Origin: a virus
Taxonomy: Duplodnaviria > Caudoviricetes
IMG/VR virus record: IMGVR_UViG_3300032219_001867
Coordinates: 28,342-92,341 of that record
Strand: one strand, 5' to 3'
DNA: 64,000 nt
Shown here: one piece after another, positions 11,307 through 63,788 of the stretch
Numbering within the stretch: the first letter of the stretch is position 1
Layout of the letters: each line of letters starts with the position of its first letter
Made by a program: the position numbers and the translations under genes
Notes under the pieces: model-generated
Told to the model about the DNA's origin: nothing
What the model saw: only the letters and a program-made list of their open reading frames with translations
The model's database searches: none

Positions 11307-13066
11307 TCCCTATACCCGTAAACCATTATTGTTGCTGCAAACGTTCCACTTGGAACAAACAACTGAAAACCGGCTGTTGTAGCAGTTGAGTTCATGGAAC
11401 CAGCAAATGTCCAAGCCGTCGGCGCGCCCGAAGCGCCCCAACGTCCATTCCCCGCTATCGAGGTTCGCGTTGACGAGCTAAAAGGAGCGTAAACGTCAAA
11501 AGACCGAGCAGAAAAATTGGCGTCCATAGCCGACATTTGAAAGCGCGAATCTAAACTAGCGAAAAAGCCTGAACCGTAATATATGTTTCCCGCCTGTGCG
11601 CCGATATTTTGCCAGTTGTACGCGGTTGACGTTGTGTTTACAGTCCCGGAGGAATTTACGCTTCTGAAAGACATATAGTCACCGCCCGCCGTATCGTTTA
11701 TGACAATGCGGTAATTTGTATATGTTGACGAAAAAACGCCGTTTACAACAATTGCCGTGTTATTGCCGGTAGCGGTTATTTTGCCTGTTGAACTACTAAA
11801 CGAAACACTTCCGCCAGTAGAAGAAACGCTGGTGGGAATGATGGGAACCAAGCCCGCACCGGTCGAAACACCAGTTCCGCCCCGAGCAATCAACAACGTG
11901 CCAGAAGTAATGTCGTCACTCGAATGAACGTGAGCTGTGGGTGTACGAGCGTCACTTAATCGTGAGTCAGTTGTTATTACAGCAGTTCCCGTAACGGCAC
12001 TTGGTGCAATCTCAATTGTCGTATTGCTTGCGGCGGTTAAGCGCCCCTTAGCGTCTACTGTAAAAGCTGCAACAGCAGAAGCCGAGCCATAACTTCCCAA
12101 CGTAACACCTGAGGTTGCAAGTGTTGGGTTAGGATACGTGCCAGTAAGGTCGCCACCAGCTGACGTAGACGACGTAAGCAGTGTTGCACTTGATGGGATT
12201 GTAGTTGAGTTAATAGTCACACCGGCAATGTTGCTAATGGTGCTACCTAGAGCTTGAGACGTAGAACCAAAAGTAATAGAAGAATTTGAAAGCTTACTGT
12301 TCGCAATTGACCCAGCCAACATTGTGTTGGTTACAGTGCCTGTGTCGGCTAACGTAACAGCCGTACCCGATATTTTTGACGCGGCAATTGCAGCGGAGGC
12401 ATTGATGTCTGCGTTAACGACGGTTCCGTCAAGAAGCATTGTTGAAGTAACCGAACCTGTATCGCTGGTGGTAACAAGCGTTGAACTGGCAGGAATAGTG
12501 GTGCTATTTACTGAGGTAACGTTTGGCAAGGAAGTTGTCGCTGAAGTGATAAACGACCCGCTTGTAGGAAGCGTGACCCCGTTAATTGACGTGACACCCG
12601 TTGGTGTTGCGCTCAGAGCAATCGTTCCCGCGGACGTTATGGTTCCGCCCGTAAGGTTGGTGCCCGCTGTGATGCTGGTTACCGACCCGCCCGCCCCGGG
12701 AATCCAAGAGCTGGTTGAAGACTGATACTTAATTACCTGACCGTTAGTAACCCCAGCGGTGTCAACATCGGAAAGACCATCCAAAGACAGGTTTAGTAAG
12801 TTTTGGTTTACACCAAACGTTCCGGACAGTACTGGGAAAGAAGGGTCTCCACCCTCAAACTGAATCCAAACTCCCTGACCAATTTTAGGCGGGTTAACAC
12901 GCACACCATTAGCGTCTTTTACCCAAGCCCAATCCGTAATCTCTTTTGCAAGAATCTGCGGTATCTGAACTTTAACGCGCCCTTTGTTAAGGGGGTCAGC
13001 GTTACTAACGACAATCCCCCTATAGATACCGTAAAATCTACGGTTTCCATAAGAGTCTAGAATCAT
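11303..13066 (-). CDS. baseplate spike (gp5/gpV OB-fold) fused to a fibre-like extension
   Basis: YRGIVVSNADPLNKGRVKVQIP...PKIGQGVWIQFEGGDPSFPV OB-fold, then ~490 aa S/T/G-rich fibre and a tip domain. Confidence 0.8.
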   Translation of the reverse strand: MILDSYGNRRFYGIYRGIVVSNADPLNKGRVKVQIPQILAKEITDWAWVKDANGVRVNPPKIGQGVWIQFEGGDPSFPVLSGTFGVNQNLLNLSLDGLSDVDTAGVTNGQVIKYQSSTSSWIPGAGGSVTSITAGTNLTGGTITSAGTIALSATPTGVTSINGVTLPTSGSFITSATTSLPNVTSVNSTTIPASSTLVTTSDTGSVTSTMLLDGTVVNADINASAAIAASKISGTAVTLADTGTVTNTMLAGSIANSKLSNSSITFGSTSQALGSTISNIAGVTINSTTIPSSATLLTSSTSAGGDLTGTYPNPTLATSGVTLGSYGSASAVAAFTVDAKGRLTAASNTTIEIAPSAVTGTAVITTDSRLSDARTPTAHVHSSDDITSGTLLIARGGTGVSTGAGLVPIIPTSVSSTGGSVSFSSSTGKITATGNNTAIVVNGVFSSTYTNYRIVINDTAGGDYMSFRSVNSSGTVNTTSTAYNWQNIGAQAGNIYYGSGFFASLDSRFQMSAMDANFSARSFDVYAPFSSSTRTSIAGNGRWGASGAPTAWTFAGSMNSTATTAGFQLFVPSGTFAATIMVYGYRE

Positions 13067-34455: not shown

Positions 34456-36189
34456 TTAGTTGTCCCTGTCAACTGCTCTACGAGATGGAAGCTTTGTTCC
34501 ATACGCGTCAGTGACAAGCTTGTTTCGGATGGCTTGCTCGCCCTGCAACTCCGCCGTATTGGCGTTCAAGTTGGGGTCGCCATTGGCTTCTTCACCGGGA
34601 GGGCCAAGAACACCATCTCCTAAGACATCTCCATTGCCTGTTAGCATGGGGTCCATAGGAGTAGCAGAGCCATCAGGACCGACCATCATTCCGGTCATGT
34701 CCATGATTTCTTTCTGTATTTGAACCTTAATGAGGTTCATCGCACCCTCAGCTTGAGCGTCATCGACAAGCTCGGAGCGGATTTCTTGCAGTTTTTCCTC
34801 GGGGAATTCTTCGCCCAAGGCACGGAGTGCGCCCTCCTTTGACTCCAGTCCCATTCCCATCTTCTGCTGAATCTCGTTGAGCAAGACTAGCTTGTCGAGC
34901 GGGAGAGGCTGGGGAAAGTGTGCATAAGTCTGGTACGTAAGCGGGTCATTGGGGTCCAACTGGTCAAGCTGGTCAGGCTTAATTGGGCCATCTGTATCTG
35001 CATTGTAGATAAATGTTTCAGGCTCTTTGATAGCCAGGTTGAGCATAATAATTTCATTAATCTTCTCCAGTCCAGCGCCATACTGAGCTGTTTTCTGTGC
35101 CCAGCGGTTCATCAAAGGCTGGTACTGAATAGAGAGGGCCACACCAGAGGTGTTTGAAATAGGCTGAACTTGACCCAGAGCGGTTTCAGGGATGTTCATT
35201 AGTTCGTGCATAGAAGTCTTCAGCATCGCCATGTACTGCATAGCGCCAGCAAGACCGGCAGAACCGCCTTCAAGGTTGAATACCTGCGAGTCCTTGGGCA
35301 AACCACCCCAGACCTTCTTAGCACCTTTTTCAAGGTTAGAAGCTTTAGCCCCAACAATTACCGTGACTGGAGCAGCGTGATAGTTGATGATGTCGGCAAC
35401 GTCAGTGGCTATTTCGTTGTACGACCGATTAAGCGTGATAATGTCGTGGGCGTCGGAGAGTCCCCACGGTGAGCCAGAAACAGGGATATTCGGGATGTGT
35501 ACGACGGGAATTTCACCGAGCGGGTTAGGCCGCGAATCAATGAGCTCGTCGTTAATGTACTCTTCAATGATGTCATCAGTCAGAATCTCCGTGTAAGTAA
35601 AAACTTGACGGGTTCCCTCAAGTGAGGTTCCCCAAAAACGATACTTTTGCTTAAATCGTAATAGGCGGCTTCGGTCGTGGGGGTGAAACTCAGGGAAACA
35701 AAAAGCACTGTTCAATGGTAGGATGCGAACGCGGCCTGGATGTGCGCGACCAATAGAGTCGGTCCACGGCTCTTCATAAGCAATCTTTACAAAGCAGTCG
35801 CCTGTAATAGCGCCAATCTGAGACATCTCGAATAAGACGCGAATCTTATCGTTGTCAATTTCCCAAACGCGCTCAAGACGGTCAGGAATAATGGCTTCTG
35901 TGGCCTTTGGGCTACGAAACTGGACGCCCTTACCAAATACAAAGCGAGTCAAGAAGTCAATAAAGGCACGGTAGTAATTAAAAGAGACTTGAGTCTCACC
36001 CTGCTCACGTCGGTAGCCCCAGTGGTGTCCGAGGTACATAGCCCAGTTGAGCGAGTAACGGTTTAGACGAGGCCCGTGAACCTCAAACTCTTCATCAGCA
36101 AGTTCTACAAGCCCCAGAGGCGAGATGCTGATAGTTAGGTCAGAAGACGCCGCCCTATAACTGGGTGGTGAAAAATCTGCAAATGACAT
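34456..36189 (-). CDS. portal protein (SPP1 gp6-like)
   Basis: NYYRAFID, NPLGEIPVVHIPN, GLSD, NTSGVAL. Confidence 0.9.
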   Translation of the reverse strand: MSFADFSPPSYRAASSDLTISISPLGLVELADEEFEVHGPRLNRYSLNWAMYLGHHWGYRREQGETQVSFNYYRAFIDFLTRFVFGKGVQFRSPKATEAIIPDRLERVWEIDNDKIRVLFEMSQIGAITGDCFVKIAYEEPWTDSIGRAHPGRVRILPLNSAFCFPEFHPHDRSRLLRFKQKYRFWGTSLEGTRQVFTYTEILTDDIIEEYINDELIDSRPNPLGEIPVVHIPNIPVSGSPWGLSDAHDIITLNRSYNEIATDVADIINYHAAPVTVIVGAKASNLEKGAKKVWGGLPKDSQVFNLEGGSAGLAGAMQYMAMLKTSMHELMNIPETALGQVQPISNTSGVALSIQYQPLMNRWAQKTAQYGAGLEKINEIIMLNLAIKEPETFIYNADTDGPIKPDQLDQLDPNDPLTYQTYAHFPQPLPLDKLVLLNEIQQKMGMGLESKEGALRALGEEFPEEKLQEIRSELVDDAQAEGAMNLIKVQIQKEIMDMTGMMVGPDGSATPMDPMLTGNGDVLGDGVLGPPGEEANGDPNLNANTAELQGEQAIRNKLVTDAYGTKLPSRRAVDRDN

Positions 36190-43122: not shown

Positions 43123-43159
43123 GTATTTATTGTGACAGAAACAAAAAAGAAAAGACCTC

Positions 43160-43402
43160 CTAAGAGGTCTCTTCTCCATACTCATCCCACCGACTCATAA
43201 GAGTGGCAATGATGTCTTGGACTTGTTTTGGTGGGCTCTTGATTTGCTTTAGCAACATTAGAACGTCGTATAGCTCATCTTTGCGCCCACGCATTGCGGC
43301 GTCCTGCATCATAGAGTCAAGGCTAATTACGTTAGGATTGCGTTCTTTATCTACAGAAACTTCGTGAAAGTCTTGCCAAATTTCAGGGAAAAAACTACTC
43401 AT
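43160..43402 (-). CDS. hypothetical protein
   Basis: 80-aa ORF with SD. Confidence 0.5.
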   Translation of the reverse strand: MSSFFPEIWQDFHEVSVDKERNPNVISLDSMMQDAAMRGRKDELYDVLMLLKQIKSPPKQVQDIIATLMSRWDEYGEETS

Positions 43403-44553: not shown

Positions 44554-44554
44554 G

Positions 44555-44627
44555 CTCCCCGACCTAGACTCGAACTAGGAACTTCGAAGTTAACAGCTTC
44601 GCACTCTGCCAATTGAGTTATCGAGGA
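44555..44627 (-). tRNA. trnN: tRNA-Asn(GTT)
   Basis: TCCTCGA acceptor, D-arm TAACTCAATTGGCAGAGT, anticodon arm GAAG-CTGTTAA-CTTC, T-loop TTCGAGT; CCA not encoded. Confidence 0.92.
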
Positions 44628-44745: not shown

Positions 44746-45036
44746 TTAATTGGTTTTTTCTGCCCACGACGCGCCGCTCTCAGTGCGCACACCGCTGTGG
44801 CGCGGAGGAGTAACCCCTAAAGTTTTGGCGTGATTCCACAAGCCTGTGGCAATTCCCTTACGACGATGTTCTTTGTCAACGCTTACGTCTTCTACTCGCC
44901 CACTTTTTCTGTGCCATCGCAGATAGCCAACAACATCTCCCACAGTAGGGTCAAAAGCCTCTAGTTCATGGGATGTAGGGTGCGTATCCGTAAACTTGTA
45001 CGAGATGCCGTTGAAGTCACCGTTATTGCGCCCCAT
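44746..45036 (-). CDS. GNAT-family acetyltransferase (MGRNNGDF tag)
   Basis: VSVDKEHRRKGIAT acetyl-CoA-binding motif. Confidence 0.8.
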   Translation of the reverse strand: MGRNNGDFNGISYKFTDTHPTSHELEAFDPTVGDVVGYLRWHRKSGRVEDVSVDKEHRRKGIATGLWNHAKTLGVTPPRHSGVRTESGASWAEKTN

Positions 45037-45338
45037 TATTTACCAACCTTGGCTGCCCAAGCTTTACCCTCGTTTGTTTGTGTTGTGGGCTCAGAGTGCT
45101 CTGGGTTTAACCCTTGTTCTTTGGCGTATGCCCACATTCCGGAGGCAATACCTTTGCGCTGGTGCTCAGGGTTGACCATGACGTTGCGGACATTACGGCC
45201 CCGCCCTTTGCGCTCAAACCCAAGAAGCATGTGCCCCACAATTCCTTCTTCGGGGTGATTGGCGTGGATAAGAGCGCTCAACTTGTCAGCAGTGTGGCTG
45301 TACGTAACCCCGTGAAAGTCCGAGTTACTTCTACCCAT
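45036..45338 (-). CDS. GNAT-family acetyltransferase (MGRSNSDF tag)
   Basis: VMVNPEHQRKGIAS motif; paralogue of neighbour. Confidence 0.8.
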   Translation of the reverse strand: MGRSNSDFHGVTYSHTADKLSALIHANHPEEGIVGHMLLGFERKGRGRNVRNVMVNPEHQRKGIASGMWAYAKEQGLNPEHSEPTTQTNEGKAWAAKVGK

Positions 45339-45910
45339 TAGCGGGCACCCTCAAACTCTTGAAAATTACCGGGGTGTAGTTGAGACGGGAAGTAACCGCC
45401 CTCACCGGGCTCAACAAGACGAGTATCAAGGTGTAGGGGAGCGCCCTTTCCTTGCGCTTTATCTTGGGCTACTTCATCCCAGCCCCGTACAATCTTTACG
45501 GGAAGGTGGGTGACCCCGGCTCGAAGGGCGGCAGCAAGTCGGTGATGCCCTTCGCCTAATGTTGCCCACTTTTCTTTGTGGTTGTACATGAGGTATAGCG
45601 GCTCACGGATTGCCCCCACCCCGTCTGTACGCAAGTCCTCACTGATATTAGAGATGTTTTTTTCACTAGTACTACGCGCGTCTCTGCCCTCTCGGTCAAG
45701 GGTTCGGAACCTAGTCAACTGATGTACTGGAAGTAGCGCAACATCGCGCCCGTAACGATGCCCCGGCTCTTGTTCAAGCTCTGGAGAAGCCTGACGTTCC
45801 GTGAGCGCATGGTCAGACCAACGTGCTCCTTTATTGTAGTCAGCTAGTCCGTCTCCGTGGTATACCGGATAAGAACTGCCCCCAGCAAAGTCACCGTTAT
45901 TGCGCCCCAT
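45338..45910 (-). CDS. ParB/Srx-like domain protein (MGRNNGDF tag)
   Basis: IREPL...EGHHRLAAA...G.THLPV. Confidence 0.75.
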   Translation of the reverse strand: MGRNNGDFAGGSSYPVYHGDGLADYNKGARWSDHALTERQASPELEQEPGHRYGRDVALLPVHQLTRFRTLDREGRDARSTSEKNISNISEDLRTDGVGAIREPLYLMYNHKEKWATLGEGHHRLAAALRAGVTHLPVKIVRGWDEVAQDKAQGKGAPLHLDTRLVEPGEGGYFPSQLHPGNFQEFEGAR

Positions 45911-46040: not shown

Positions 46041-47027
46041 TTATTTTGTGACCGCAGATGCGTTGGACTCATACGAGGTATTGGTGGCCTCAAAGAAGTT
46101 AACCAGCTGCAAAGTGTCGTTGGCAGCAGCCATCCACTTGGCAGGATTGCTGACGTTGTAGTGCGAACCAAAGCCCAGCTCCTCAAGACGACGGTCTGCC
46201 AAGTACTTGGTGTACTGGCTGGCGTAGTCAGCGTTGAGCCCAAGAATGCCGTGGGGGAATTGGTCGCGGTTGTACTCAATTTCCATGTCAACGGCGTCGA
46301 GAATCATCTGCTTAATTTCATCCGCAAACTCAGGCGTAACAATGTCGGGGTTCTCTTCCAGAATGGTCACAACAAGGTTGACACCAAACTTCAAGTGCAG
46401 GGACTCGTCACGGACAATCCAGTCAACGAGTGAGCCAAAGTTGCGCAGCAGGTTGCGCTGACGGAACGACAGGGCCACCATGAAGCCACTGTAGAACCAG
46501 ATGCCCTCCATGATTACCGAGTAAGCCACCAAGTTGCGAACAAAATCCTGCTTGCCCTCTACGGTGTCAATGTCAAGCTTCTCTTCCGTCATGCGCGTGA
46601 TGAACTTGACCTCAAAGTCTTCTTTTGCCTTAATTGAGGGAACAGCCACGTGCTGGGCGTAAATTGCCTCACGGTCTACAGGGAAGGTCTCCAACACGTA
46701 CTCGAACGACATGCAGTGGTTGGCTTCTTCCCACATCTGCTTGGCGAGGTAGAGGTGGCACTCTGGGGCGCTCAAATAGGGGTAAACACCAAAGGCCAGA
46801 GCCTTGTTCACAATCAGCTCAGAAGGGTTAAAGAAGCTCATTAAGAAGGTAATGGCGTGCTGCTCGTCCTCAGACATGGTTTTGAAATCAGCGATGTCTT
46901 CGCCAAGCTGAATCTCATTCGGGAACCAAGTATTAGCTACTGCCTGGTCGTAAAGGTCCATCGCCCATTGATACTTGACAGGCTTCAAAAGCAGACCTTC
47001 TTGAATACCTTGACCTAGAATTCCCAT
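46041..47027 (-). CDS. nrdB: ribonucleotide reductase beta subunit, class Ic (R2c)-type signature
   Basis: ferritin-like ligands NPSE, EEANH, EGIWFYSGF, RDESLH; Phe at radical-Tyr site (HCMSF); C-terminal NFFE...SY. Confidence 0.9.
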   Translation of the reverse strand: MGILGQGIQEGLLLKPVKYQWAMDLYDQAVANTWFPNEIQLGEDIADFKTMSEDEQHAITFLMSFFNPSELIVNKALAFGVYPYLSAPECHLYLAKQMWEEANHCMSFEYVLETFPVDREAIYAQHVAVPSIKAKEDFEVKFITRMTEEKLDIDTVEGKQDFVRNLVAYSVIMEGIWFYSGFMVALSFRQRNLLRNFGSLVDWIVRDESLHLKFGVNLVVTILEENPDIVTPEFADEIKQMILDAVDMEIEYNRDQFPHGILGLNADYASQYTKYLADRRLEELGFGSHYNVSNPAKWMAAANDTLQLVNFFEATNTSYESNASAVTK

Positions 47028-47138
47028 TAAAATCTCTCCCTGTAGACATAGAAACCGCCCAAGAGCGGGCGGTTCCTCTAGTCTACCAAAAGCAGAAAGC
47101 CCCCCGGTCATAAACCGAGGGGCTTCCTTAATATTTTG

Positions 47139-50220: not shown

Positions 50221-50748
50221 TTATCGGCTCATTCGTAAGGTAGAAGCGGTAGCAATTCGTGGGGTGAAATTGACTACGGGCTTTTCTTCGTACTCTGTTT
50301 CCCCGTATTCGTTATTAGTAACGTCTCTAATTTTAGACATTCCGGTCAGTCTAATCGGTGCTCCATGGCGTACCGTTTTTTCTTTCTCCGAATGGTCGTG
50401 TGTGTAGATACCTTTACCGCCATAAATAAGCTTATCTTTGCCGTTGTTTTGCAAATCGGCTACATCATTTGGGTGGACGTATCCTTCTACCACGTAACCA
50501 AAGTTATTTTTGGTAGGACTGCCAAACTTTGTTGCAAAAGATTGAGCAACATACTTTTCTGTAGTCCAATGGTGCCCAATATCGTTGAAGTCTATATCGG
50601 AAGAAGACTTTAATCTATAAGGCCATCCTGTATGAATTCCTCGGTATACCTTGGTGTACCCCAGAGCGTCAAGGTCGTCTTGCTCCGGGGCCATTCCAGG
50701 TAAGTAATTATGCAGCTGTTTGCTACTCAAGTCGTAGGCGCTACTCAC
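50221..50748 (-). CDS. ADP-ribosyltransferase-like protein
   Basis: VYRGI...HWTT...A.SF...EKE pattern (R-S/T-ExE clade). Confidence 0.6.
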   Translation of the reverse strand: MSSAYDLSSKQLHNYLPGMAPEQDDLDALGYTKVYRGIHTGWPYRLKSSSDIDFNDIGHHWTTEKYVAQSFATKFGSPTKNNFGYVVEGYVHPNDVADLQNNGKDKLIYGGKGIYTHDHSEKEKTVRHGAPIRLTGMSKIRDVTNNEYGETEYEEKPVVNFTPRIATASTLRMSR

Positions 50749-51872
50749 GTTAGGTCAAACCTCTGCTGTTTCCAGTAACCGTCTCTGGGAAAATCTACGT
50801 TAGCTCTAGTGTTATACTTATTCAAACGGGTGAGGTAGACATCTCTGGCTTCTTTAGCTGCATCGCGCTCCAAGTTACCTCTTTGGTCTAGCAATTCGCG
50901 AACGTGAGGGTGTGTGTGGTACATCTCCCCCAACACCAGCTGGTCAGACAAGTGTGCGTGCTCTTGTTTTGACAGCGTTTCTTCCTCGGTAGAAGATATA
51001 AGTGCCCTACCAAGATGAGACTCTGCTCTTTCAGGTATTCCTACGCCGGGAGTGTCATGCAACGAAGCTTGAAGCCTAGTAGCCGCATACAGTGCTCGTT
51101 GAGTACCCCCGTAAAAATGTTGTGGAGTATACCCGGCACCACTGGCGTGATTACTTGCTATCTCCCTTCTTCGGGACTCACTTACCTCATGCAGGGCGGA
51201 CTCTAACCTGGGGCGCTCAAACCTATCCGCAAAGCCTTCAGCAACCCCCTCTTGAATGGGGTCCGCAGCGTTGGTATTCCGGTGCCGTCCGTAAGCATTT
51301 TCGTCACTAACTTCTAATCCATGACCCATCTCATGGATTAAAGTTCGTTTAAGTTTTGGTGTTCCGGTTACAAAGTCGTCTTTACGGAAAGCCCCCGTGT
51401 TTAACGTCAAATCTCCGCCCAGGTAATTGGGAGTTTTCCCCTCGGGAGTTTCCTGGTCAATAACTCCACGAGGTTTTCTTTTCAATGCTCCCGTTACTCG
51501 ATAATCTTCTTTAGAATTTGCGCTTACGTCAAACGAAGCTTTATTCAGAACATGAATAGGAATAGTAGTTTTTTTAAGCGCCTCAGTCAGTCCGTGCGTA
51601 ATAGACTTTCGTGTTTCTGGGTCGTCCCAATACTCGGGAACAGAAGTTAGACGCAAAGTTCTGGCAGCAGCCTCCTCGTACTCCCCTTTAGCAAGAGAGG
51701 GGTCTTTAGACGTTCCTGTTCCCCAGTGAGGGTCAAACAGCATTCCTTGGTAAGAAACTCCAGGCGAATGCTCGCCTGTTCCCTCGGGTCTAAAGTTGTC
51801 CTTAGTATGAAACTTTAGTTCCCCATTCTCATCCTCATGAAAAGTATTCTCAAACTGTTTTCCATAAGGCAT
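50745..51872 (-). CDS. gluzincin-like metallopeptidase domain protein
   Basis: LIHEMGH...EGVAE. Confidence 0.65.
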   Translation of the reverse strand: MPYGKQFENTFHEDENGELKFHTKDNFRPEGTGEHSPGVSYQGMLFDPHWGTGTSKDPSLAKGEYEEAAARTLRLTSVPEYWDDPETRKSITHGLTEALKKTTIPIHVLNKASFDVSANSKEDYRVTGALKRKPRGVIDQETPEGKTPNYLGGDLTLNTGAFRKDDFVTGTPKLKRTLIHEMGHGLEVSDENAYGRHRNTNAADPIQEGVAEGFADRFERPRLESALHEVSESRRREIASNHASGAGYTPQHFYGGTQRALYAATRLQASLHDTPGVGIPERAESHLGRALISSTEEETLSKQEHAHLSDQLVLGEMYHTHPHVRELLDQRGNLERDAAKEARDVYLTRLNKYNTRANVDFPRDGYWKQQRFDLT

Positions 51873-52034: not shown

Positions 52035-52328
52035 TCAGTTTGGCGGGTCATTGTTGGGGTTTCTTTTATCTTGGTGCTCCAAATTGTGGTGCATATCTAA
52101 CGTTTCACTTTCGTGAAACTTAGCGCGGCAAAACGTGCACTTAAATCCTGGCTGACGGTCAATGTAGGTATCGCCGTTACCATCGGGGTCAGCCACACGT
52201 TTGGGGCCTTCTCCTACCTTGAGGATGTAGCGCCGTTTAGCGCTTTCTTCCCAACGCCTACGCTCGTAGTCCGTTTTAATGTAGCGCGGGGCACTGAATT
52301 GCCCGCCCTGGTGTTCCTTGGATACCAC
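52035..52328 (-). CDS. C2H2 zinc-finger protein
   Basis: FKCTFCRAKF...LDMHHNLEH. Confidence 0.6.
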   Translation of the reverse strand: MVSKEHQGGQFSAPRYIKTDYERRRWEESAKRRYILKVGEGPKRVADPDGNGDTYIDRQPGFKCTFCRAKFHESETLDMHHNLEHQDKRNPNNDPPN

Positions 52329-55880: not shown

Positions 55881-56330
55881 TCAATTCTCATACCGGTCAA
55901 TAACATCGCCCTTGGGATTGCCCCCCGTAATCCGCGTGGTTTTAGGAATAAGGCGAGAAGCCATCCTATGTGCCATAGGAGACATGCTTCCCCCCTCATA
56001 AGGCGGTGCCCAGCCACGTTGCTCGGCAGCGTTAGTCGCTTCAACCAAAAGCGCGGGAAGAGCAGCCCGGTGCTTCTTTTCTACGTACAAGTGCCCAACA
56101 TGTCCGTCATCGTTGTGTTCGATGCTCCCGGCCCATTCCCCTTCAGGAGAGTGCATCACAATATGGCTTGTGCTATAGAACTTTCCCTCAGGGTTATGGT
56201 GGTGCCCAAAAGAAAAAGTGTAGCCTTGACCGTGTTGTCCAGCCAAGAACTCTACCTTGCGCCTAGCCTTTAGATACTCTTCTTTATCAGGCAGCTCATC
56301 GAGCGTAAACGGCTCGTCTTCCATACTCAT
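55881..56330 (-). CDS. degenerate GNAT-like protein
   Basis: GSIEH..GHVGHLYVEKKHR; similar segment in 56764..57837. Confidence 0.5.
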   Translation of the reverse strand: MSMEDEPFTLDELPDKEEYLKARRKVEFLAGQHGQGYTFSFGHHHNPEGKFYSTSHIVMHSPEGEWAGSIEHNDDGHVGHLYVEKKHRAALPALLVEATNAAEQRGWAPPYEGGSMSPMAHRMASRLIPKTTRITGGNPKGDVIDRYEN

Positions 56331-56761
56331 TAGTAAACCGTACTAATAGGGAGAAACTCGTCAGGGCGGTCACGGCGCATAACGGCTACGCGGTGGTGTC
56401 CGTTATAGAGCGTGGAGGCTTCGCCGTGCGCACGTACCTGGACAGGCTTAGACCAATCGTAACCGCCCTCTTTAATACGTTGGGTTAGTCCGCCAAACTG
56501 ACCTGACTGTCTTTCGTCTGCGGGTCCTTCGTCAACGCCGTCAACATCGTGGTAGTTCATTCCGGGGAAAGCGTCTGCGTTTTCGAGCTTCTCGTGAATC
56601 AGCTCTCGCTTGGTGCTTTGCTCATCCATGTCACCAAGATGATGCGTCTTAATAATCTCTTTGGCAGTAGCAAACATCGCTGGGGGATGGTCGCCAGTAG
56701 AGACTAGGTCGTGGTAGTCGTAAGACCCAAACTGTGGGCTAAGGTTATCTGCACCGCTCAT
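56330..56761 (-). CDS. ParB/Srx-like domain protein
   Basis: NGHHRVAVMRRDRPDEFLP. Confidence 0.7.
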   Translation of the reverse strand: MSGADNLSPQFGSYDYHDLVSTGDHPPAMFATAKEIIKTHHLGDMDEQSTKRELIHEKLENADAFPGMNYHDVDGVDEGPADERQSGQFGGLTQRIKEGGYDWSKPVQVRAHGEASTLYNGHHRVAVMRRDRPDEFLPISTVY

Positions 56762-63212: not shown

Positions 63213-63412
63213 TGCCACTTACACCAGACCAAGTTGCAGAGTTACAAACTAAGCAGTCATCCTATGGCTGTGGAGCAAATGACTGTTCAGACTGTTATCC
63301 AATCCAGTATGCCTGTTCATGCTGTGACGAATTGTTCGCAAATCCTATCGCTAACAACGAAACCTACCAATGCCCGCTTTGTGGCTGGGTAAACAACGAG
63401 AGAGAGGACTAA
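63212..63412 (+). CDS. Cys-rich Zn-binding protein
   Basis: CSDC, CSCC, CPLC. Confidence 0.6.
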   Translation: MPLTPDQVAELQTKQSSYGCGANDCSDCYPIQYACSCCDELFANPIANNETYQCPLCGWVNNERED

Positions 63413-63417
63413 CAATC

Positions 63418-63513
63418 ATGGCATTTTGCGAACATTGTGGAAACAGACTGTCTTATGAGTCACAGCCCTGTGATTCACCAGCACATAACCGACCCATCGC
63501 TAAAGATAACTGA
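63418..63513 (+). CDS. 31-aa Zn-finger-like protein
   Basis: MAFCEHCG...C...H; conserved start motif. Confidence 0.5.
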   Translation: MAFCEHCGNRLSYESQPCDSPAHNRPIAKDN

Positions 63514-63527
63514 AAGGACTACCAATC

Positions 63528-63788
63528 ATGCCAATCCTACATAAGCCATACGCTGTAAACCGTATCGGGCGATACACCATATCCGTTTTGGACACACTCA
63601 ATGACGAAACCATGCTGTATTCCACAGACGTTCTAGAACGAGCAGAGCGTAGGGCGCAGAGCCTAGTGCGCGTAATGAAGTCTGCCAATGCAGTAATCAC
63701 TATTAGCACTACCGGTGAAGTAGTCTCATACGTCGAAAAGATAAATGACGAAGCAGTTTTGATGCACACCAATGAGGGAGAGGACTAG
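63528..63788 (+). CDS. hypothetical protein
   Basis: conserved start motif. Confidence 0.55.
   Translation: MPILHKPYAVNRIGRYTISVLDTLNDETMLYSTDVLERAERRAQSLVRVMKSANAVITISTTGEVVSYVEKINDEAVLMHTNEGED

Follow-up and report, generated by a model that had tools for sequence, protein, structure and literature searches.

Many unrelated small accessory enzymes in a group of uncultured freshwater actinobacterial phages were found to begin with one of two short peptides, and this N-terminal element is a separate, intrinsically disordered module that looks like an undescribed address tag. The element was studied in a 64,000-nucleotide (nt) stretch of one such phage genome (the window), corresponding to bases 28342-92341 of the 92,341-bp virus record IMGVR_UViG_3300032219_001867 (48% GC; 96% complete by CheckV), where three consecutive genes, the trio, start with peptides of the MGRNNGDF type. 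We consider it likely that the tag is a modular N-terminal address read by a common partner. Its occurrence is non-random and far wider than first reported.

The original prediction, made from the letters of the window, had described three consecutive genes coupled by TAATG and headed by MGRNNGDF-type peptides, and the coordinates, overlaps and peptides were all confirmed (Table 1). TAATG overlaps, in which the start codon lies over the preceding stop codon, join a basic open reading frame (ORF) of 38 amino acids (aa), which gave no match in a Pfam scan, the ParB-like gene and both GNAT genes. A loose regular expression for the motif, run on all six translated frames of the complete 92,341-bp genome, matched at the three trio starts only. 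The first 23 nt are identical between the ParB-like gene and the 96-aa GNAT gene, and the 100-aa GNAT gene encodes the same type of peptide (type A, see below) by codons that differ from those of the other two. The trio belongs to a unit bounded by hairpins and made up of the gene for the beta subunit of ribonucleotide reductase (RNR beta), the 38-aa ORF, the ParB-like gene, the two GNAT genes, tRNA-Asn and a few small genes.

The bodies behind the tags were compared with known folds. For the 190-aa ParB-like protein no Pfam match was found at E 0.1, and PHROGs gave weak ParB-like matches only. An AlphaFold2 (AF2) model built from an alignment of 38 homologues (predicted local distance difference test, pLDDT, 91.8) showed a ParB/sulfiredoxin (Srx) fold, which in Foldseek matched the ParB and Srx chains 7bm8, 7bnr and 6ky4 with probability 1.0 and E values of 1e-4 to 7e-4. 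The family alignment contains an invariant EG[NH]HR, corresponding to the conserved arginine motif of the ParB/sulfiredoxin superfamily, and three homologues carry a precomputed PF02195 assignment. The C-terminal dodecapeptide HPGNFQEFEGAR (45338-45376) is nearly invariant among the 38 homologues, which are otherwise about 50% identical, and it is modelled inside the fold (pLDDT about 90). Both GNAT proteins matched Acetyltransf_1 in Pfam over about 45 residues only (24.0 and 27.5 bits; cut-off 20.7) and had no match in PHROGs; they are truncated "mini" GNATs with the region of the acetyl-CoA-binding motif A, and their activity is predicted. They are paralogues with 40% identity, so that within the trio only the sharing between ParB-like protein and GNAT crosses folds.

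The original prediction had also listed an ADP-ribosyltransferase (ART)-like gene starting with MSRSEEF as a bearer of the tag, and this was borne out. The 134-aa protein found nothing in Pfam or PHROGs, and its model was most similar in Foldseek to the rifampin ART Arr (2hw2/9iaf; E 4e-4; template modelling score 0.54), which points to a minimal ADP-ribosyltransferase fold. The family conserves LYHG[TS], A[FYW]AT and VYxVEP, which are only candidates for the H...[ST]...E/D catalytic triad of Arr-type enzymes. Orthologues in relatives carry MGRNNADF at the position aligned to MSRSEEF, and one ParB-like orthologue begins with MSRSEEF; thus MSRSEEF is a real variant of the tag. Residues 1-10 of the ParB-like model and 1-7 of the ART-like model had pLDDT below 50 in otherwise confident bodies, which places the tag outside the fold.

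Relatives were collected by an IMG/VR profile search with the ParB-like family, which gave 55 related loci, and by pattern scans, which gave 47 further IMG/VR stretches, several of them from contigs sampled already. About 80 related IMG/VR contigs were found to contain arrays in which up to about 12 small neighbouring genes each start with a tag of either type. Type A has the consensus M-[GST]-R-N-N-[AG]-[DE]-F and occurs as MGRNNADF, MTRNNADF, MGANNADF, MSRSEEF, MARYAEF and MSRGQEF, and type B has the consensus M-S-(A-E-D)-N-L-[SGN]-x-x-Q-[FW] and occurs as MSNLSPKQF, MSAEDNLGKQF, MTSPENIGQQF, MSALNPNQF and MSNLGRQW. Tags of both types are 7-12 residues long and end in an aromatic residue, which is separated from the first conserved element of the body by 0 to about 25 residues. 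Four consecutive genes starting with MGRNN[AE]DF, the first of them from the ART-like family, follow a lysin gene, the RNR beta gene and a small basic ORF in the syntenic contig L036.

The survey of payloads behind the tag that the original prediction had called for gave about 165 distinct tagged proteins, which formed at least 40 BLAST clusters after removal of the first 18 residues. Its claim that the tag is common to unrelated proteins holds for the ParB/Srx and GNAT proteins of the trio and for at least 40 families in relatives. Adjacent pairs of tagged genes numbered 70, compared to 30.5 expected. In the subclade to which this genome belongs, the ParB-like, GNAT and ART-like orthologues have the type A tag, and in another subclade their counterparts have type B; a few genomes are mixed. 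In alignments of orthologues the aromatic residues of the two types align to each other. One type can stand in for the other on orthologous proteins, and within a genome the exchange is mostly concerted.

The tag is maintained by selection on the peptide. In a comparison of 152 distinct tag DNAs with gene bodies, Phe was encoded by TTT at a frequency of 0.66 in the tag and 0.70 in bodies and Gln by CAA at 0.58 and 0.62, and every codon family was used for Leu, Ser and Arg in the tag. Codons for the same amino acid in type A tags differed in 31% of cases within one genome and in 45% between genomes, which shows some local homogenisation, yet selection on the peptide. The original prediction had named conservation at DNA level only as one of the findings that would contradict it, and the codon analysis excludes this.

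The tag is also specific for protein starts. Among strict matches, 35 of 37 for type A (95%) and 86 of 104 for type B (83%) lie at the head of an ORF, at most 12 residues from the start codon. The tripeptides KQF, NLS and GRN are enriched 10-12-fold within the first 15 residues, where KQF was found 56 times versus 4.5 expected. The exact DNA pattern for MGRNN[AG]DF was found in 27 IMG/VR stretches encoding 32 distinct proteins, for 30 of which no long open frame precedes the ATG; most start after TAATG or a Shine-Dalgarno sequence. With a conserved, disordered, start-specific peptide heading unrelated folds, the modular organization of tag plus payload suggested for the window is upheld.

When the exact DNA pattern for type A was run against 596 Gb of bacterial and archaeal genomes, it gave 25 single hits; about 17 would be expected by chance, as estimated from the information content of the pattern. 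None of the 25 hits, prophages included, was a gene start; all were out of frame, internal or in tiny ORFs. The tag is thus phage-specific, the cellular hits being close to chance level. A search of an open literature library for the motif strings found no paper with these motifs, and a search of the library for ART of freshwater actinophages found no paper.

Loading into the virion is, tentatively, the leading specific mechanism for the tag. The proposal rests on analogy with the capsid-targeting sequence (CTS) of phage T4 and with DarB of phage P1, and on payload domains that resemble those of polyvalent and MuF head proteins. The tag would be an address read by one common partner, of which the likeliest would be the assembling prohead (scaffold or portal), and a library of host-modifying enzymes would be co-packaged and injected with the DNA. 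Such an arrangement would be the non-covalent equivalent of polyvalent or MuF-fused head proteins, in which the domains are covalently joined, and it would act in the mode of the T4 CTS or the N-terminal signal of P1 DarB, apparently without proteolytic removal. The full picture, in which a two-peptide address code of lytic actinophages loads a shuffled library of single-domain effectors from at least 40 families for injection, is doubtful as a whole.

The internal proteins of T4 share the CTS MKTYQEFIAE (PMC8442874; PMC3012670). As in T4, a short N-terminal peptide is common to unrelated proteins of one phage, and in T4 it heads the otherwise unrelated, fast-evolving anti-host proteins IPI-III of a lytic myovirus. 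The spacing M-x3-[QE]-E-F of the T4 CTS is also present in the variants MSRGQEF and MSRSEEF. Comparison with MKTYQEFIAE showed no homology, with at most 3-4 residues in common, and in contrast to T4 the tag described here occurs on far more families, in two interchangeable types, and is known from sequence alone. In P1, the first 30 residues of DarB suffice for loading into the head (PMC9024508), so that this anti-restriction effector is likewise loaded by an N-terminal signal. DdrB, a further member of the P1 Dar system (PMC9024508), has been detected in the P1 head and contains a ParB/Srx-type domain (Iyer et al., PMC5512222). Unlike the proteins studied here, dozens of which carry a consensus of 7-12 residues, the Dar proteins have no consensus tag, and the P1 signal is longer than nine residues and may need tertiary structure. 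Short N-terminal peptides shared by many unrelated clustered accessory proteins are also found in huge phages (MNWYK..., MNRYDIALGKKPPP) and in RB43-like phages; their sequences, phage lineages and hosts are unrelated to those of the present tags. Apparent likenesses to clamp-binding motifs, to the tails of single-stranded DNA-binding protein (SSB), to the RNR beta C-termini ..DADF/..DWDF and to ParB LG[RK]GL were set aside because sequence order or position did not match.

Polyvalent proteins, which are predicted to be packaged and injected, regularly contain DdrB-type ParB-like, ART and GNAT domains, and solo versions of such domains occur beside late genes (PMC5512222). The same repertoire, with ParB-like, ART and GNAT domains and peptidases, is found behind the tags; unlike in polyvalent and MuF proteins, each domain is here its own small gene with its own tag. 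The ParB/Srx, ART and GNAT payloads of the window match this repertoire, with membership of the DdrB-like subfamily as a candidate only. Each is a single-domain protein, and the multi-domain architecture of polyvalent proteins was found only in homologues elsewhere. By tblastn, the ParB-like domain was found in Gordonia phage Jabberwocky within gp13, a MuF head-morphogenesis protein of 896 aa, and in mycobacteriophage Tonenili the 751-aa gp097 was found to join ParB-like and GNAT domains. Besides, homologues of 1371, 1503 and 3659 aa join ADPrib_exo_Tox ART domains with a ParB-like domain. In Tonenili gp097, NGDL..RYEY aligns to NGDF..SYKF of the window at the internal start of the GNAT domain, as a weak remnant. 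Four of the five fused forms examined (P0045, P0046, the 3659-aa protein of L014 and the Jabberwocky MuF protein) showed no tag at domain boundaries, and for this reason a generic linker between the domains of polyvalent proteins was rejected as the nature of the tag. The 3659-aa polyvalent protein (L014:4412-15391) contains three ADPrib_exo_Tox stretches, the ParB-like domain and a sub-threshold DUF3626 match (E 3.8e-5; 23.3 bits versus a cut-off of 27). An N-terminal region with ..PGG.GANDGYW.. is common to P0045 and P0046 and partly present in the L014 protein. The 375-aa tagged protein of the window and the ART-like protein had no tblastn match in cultured phages.

Several observations weigh against virion loading. 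The unit of the trio contains RNR beta and is not obviously late, and the larger tagged arsenal (49.7-58.9 kb) starts at a divergent control region; early or middle expression would also fit both locations. The genes for the portal, a 278-aa protein and the capsid follow each other in this order, and the syntenic counterpart of the 278-aa gene in Streptomyces phage Alone3 is annotated "scaffolding protein"; a Pfam search limited to these three genes gave no prohead protease, and the 278-aa protein had no match at all. No conserved cleavage motif was found after the tag, where the residues behind the terminal F vary among type B tags and are frequently H/N-G after type A tags. No receptor gene co-occurring universally with tag arrays was found: the untagged neighbours Hsp20, CHAP lysin, a helix-turn-helix (HTH) protein and a proteasome-beta-like peptidase each occur in part of the clade only. 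The nearest cultured relatives are the Streptomyces phages Alone3, LuckySocke, GiJojo, pSt2308 and BRock (portal 55-56% identical), and Alone3, when scanned, contained no tagged genes. In addition, six type B copies lie at extreme C-termini, each after an in-frame Met. Complete type B tags end the proteins at L005:9720-10001, L006:3995-4318, L010:8012-8458 and L031:8013-8306, with endings such as ...M..NENLGRQFD* and ...MKSNNLNPQQFS*, in which the stop codon follows directly. Since an in-frame Met precedes each, these copies look like orphan tags that lost their body and were joined to the gene upstream, and this suggests that the arrays are reshuffled by recombination at the tags.

The strongest alternative, which we regard as rather unlikely, is that the tag docks the proteins onto a hub outside the virion, either a host machine (RNA polymerase, ribosome, sliding clamp or nucleoid) or a phage hub or chaperone, and gathers many small modifying enzymes on one substrate inside the infected cell. 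A short disordered tag with an aromatic anchor does resemble known linear docking motifs, and the few copies at C-termini, the position of the trio in one unit with RNR beta and the start of other tagged genes at a divergent early control region are in line with such a role, as is the Hsp20 gene, a frequent untagged neighbour of type A arrays. However, the tag does not seem to match the clamp motif QL[SD]LF, the SSB tail or the ParA-stimulating LG[RK]GL, the C-terminal copies look like the orphan remnants described above, and docking leaves the covalent fusions of the same domains in MuF and polyvalent head proteins unexplained. The Hsp20/alpha-crystallin small heat-shock protein of these phages is encoded at L006:6068-6598 and 18 other loci (Pfam E 9e-16).

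Recognition by a co-encoded enzyme is improbable. Here the tag would be the site for a peptidase cutting after the aromatic residue, or for an N-terminal modifier, by which payloads are activated, timed or destroyed. A proteasome-beta/HslV-like peptidase gene near type B arrays at 28 loci is in favour of this, but no single enzyme family co-occurs with all arrays, and the peptidase was rejected as universal partner since its gene is found neither in this genome, which is 96% complete, nor at type A loci. The peptidase gene (L073:6411-6962, minus strand; L009:8606-9160; 26 further loci) encodes the start MTT[IL][IV]AVQ and matched Pfam Proteasome below the cut-off (E 8e-4).

It is very improbable that the block is conserved as nucleic acid, as a re-initiation context for TAATG-coupled genes or as microhomology for recombination of cassettes. 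The 23 identical bases in two of the trio genes, the position of nearly all tags after TAATG or a Shine-Dalgarno sequence, the lower synonymous divergence within than between genomes and the orphan remnants consisting of the tag only would fit such a block. Against it, synonymous codons are as free in the tag as in the bodies, including switches between codon families of Leu, Ser and Arg, the 100-aa GNAT gene reaches the same peptide by other codons, and what stays invariant is an aromatic amino acid. Recombination at the tags is probably a by-product. A functionless relic, being either a leftover linker of a split polyvalent protein or one duplicated 5' end, is hardly credible: the Tonenili alignment and the paralogy of the window GNATs would agree with it, but in four fused forms the tag is missing where the domains meet, and the peptide is kept over at least 40 families and in two interchangeable types while synonymous sites diverge, which argues for continuing selection.

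If virion loading is correct, the tag would be the first packaging code readable from sequence outside T4-like phages, and it would extend to dozens of effector families in abundant phages of freshwater actinobacteria. Injected effectors, and with them the injected proteome of uncultured phages, could then be predicted from metagenome sequences alone, the short tag could be used to load foreign proteins into capsids, and it would be explained how a covalent polyvalent strategy is replaced by separate, freely recombining tagged genes. Even with a host hub or a processing enzyme as the partner, a peptide present on at least 40 families would still point to a single key interaction in infection by these phages.

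Further tag bearers of this genome and the features around the trio are listed in Table 1.

Table 1. Tagged genes and neighbouring features in the window (window coordinates).
Feature	Position	Strand	Remarks
ParB/Srx-fold protein, 190 aa	45338..45910	-	start MGRNNGDFAG; type A tag MGRNNGDF at 45887-45910
Mini-GNAT, 100 aa	45036..45338	-	start MGRSNSDFHG; tag MGRSNSDF
Mini-GNAT paralogue, 96 aa	44746..45036	-	start MGRNNGDFNG; tag MGRNNGDF
Basic ORF, 38 aa	45910..46026	-	TAATG-coupled to ParB-like gene; same place in syntenic contig L036
tRNA-Asn(GTT)	44554..44627	-	immediately downstream of tagged trio
Terminator-like hairpin, 16 pairs	47094..47128	-	between lysin gene and RNR beta gene; upstream edge of the unit of the trio
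Terminator-like hairpin, 14 pairs	43146..43177	-	downstream of trio and tRNA-Asn
Arr-like minimal ADP-ribosyltransferase, 134 aa	57855..58259	-	tag variant MSRSEEF
143-aa protein	56330..56761	-	type B tag MSGADNLSPQF
375-aa protein	50745..51872	-	short type B tag MPYGKQF; family start in relatives MPLG[KR]QF
97-aa protein	52035..52328	-	loose type B form MVSKEHQGGQF
KTSC-domain protein, 218 aa	39076..39732	-	type B bearer; start MANEGVPLGGQF, conserved in L036

The longest ORF for RNR beta (window 46041-47111) overlaps with the strong, terminator-like hairpin bounding the unit upstream; as relatives begin with MGILGQG, the true start is probably near 47030. Between the KTSC-domain gene and the terminase gene lies an ORF of 114 aa. 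A protein encoded at genome positions 11823-12278 (minus strand), 16063-16518 bases before the start of the window, begins with MNPEDSKQFD[DE]IMGRNF and so combines an element resembling type B with one resembling type A, in tandem; the same was found at L003:10546-10971. The SPP1-type portal begins with MSFADFSPPSY (window 36157-36189), and with MSIDFSPPSY in L041 and L049, which loosely resembles a type A tag together with the ..SY that follows it in the trio; this resemblance may be due to chance. A 47-aa zinc-ribbon-like ORF occurs at either end of the record (window 63370-63772; genome 28-430), near-identical but for two substitutions, and a 90-aa ORF on the opposite strand is likewise present in near-identical form at both. 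The duplicated ends may represent a terminal repeat or an assembly artefact of a circularly permuted genome; the record is classed as linear.

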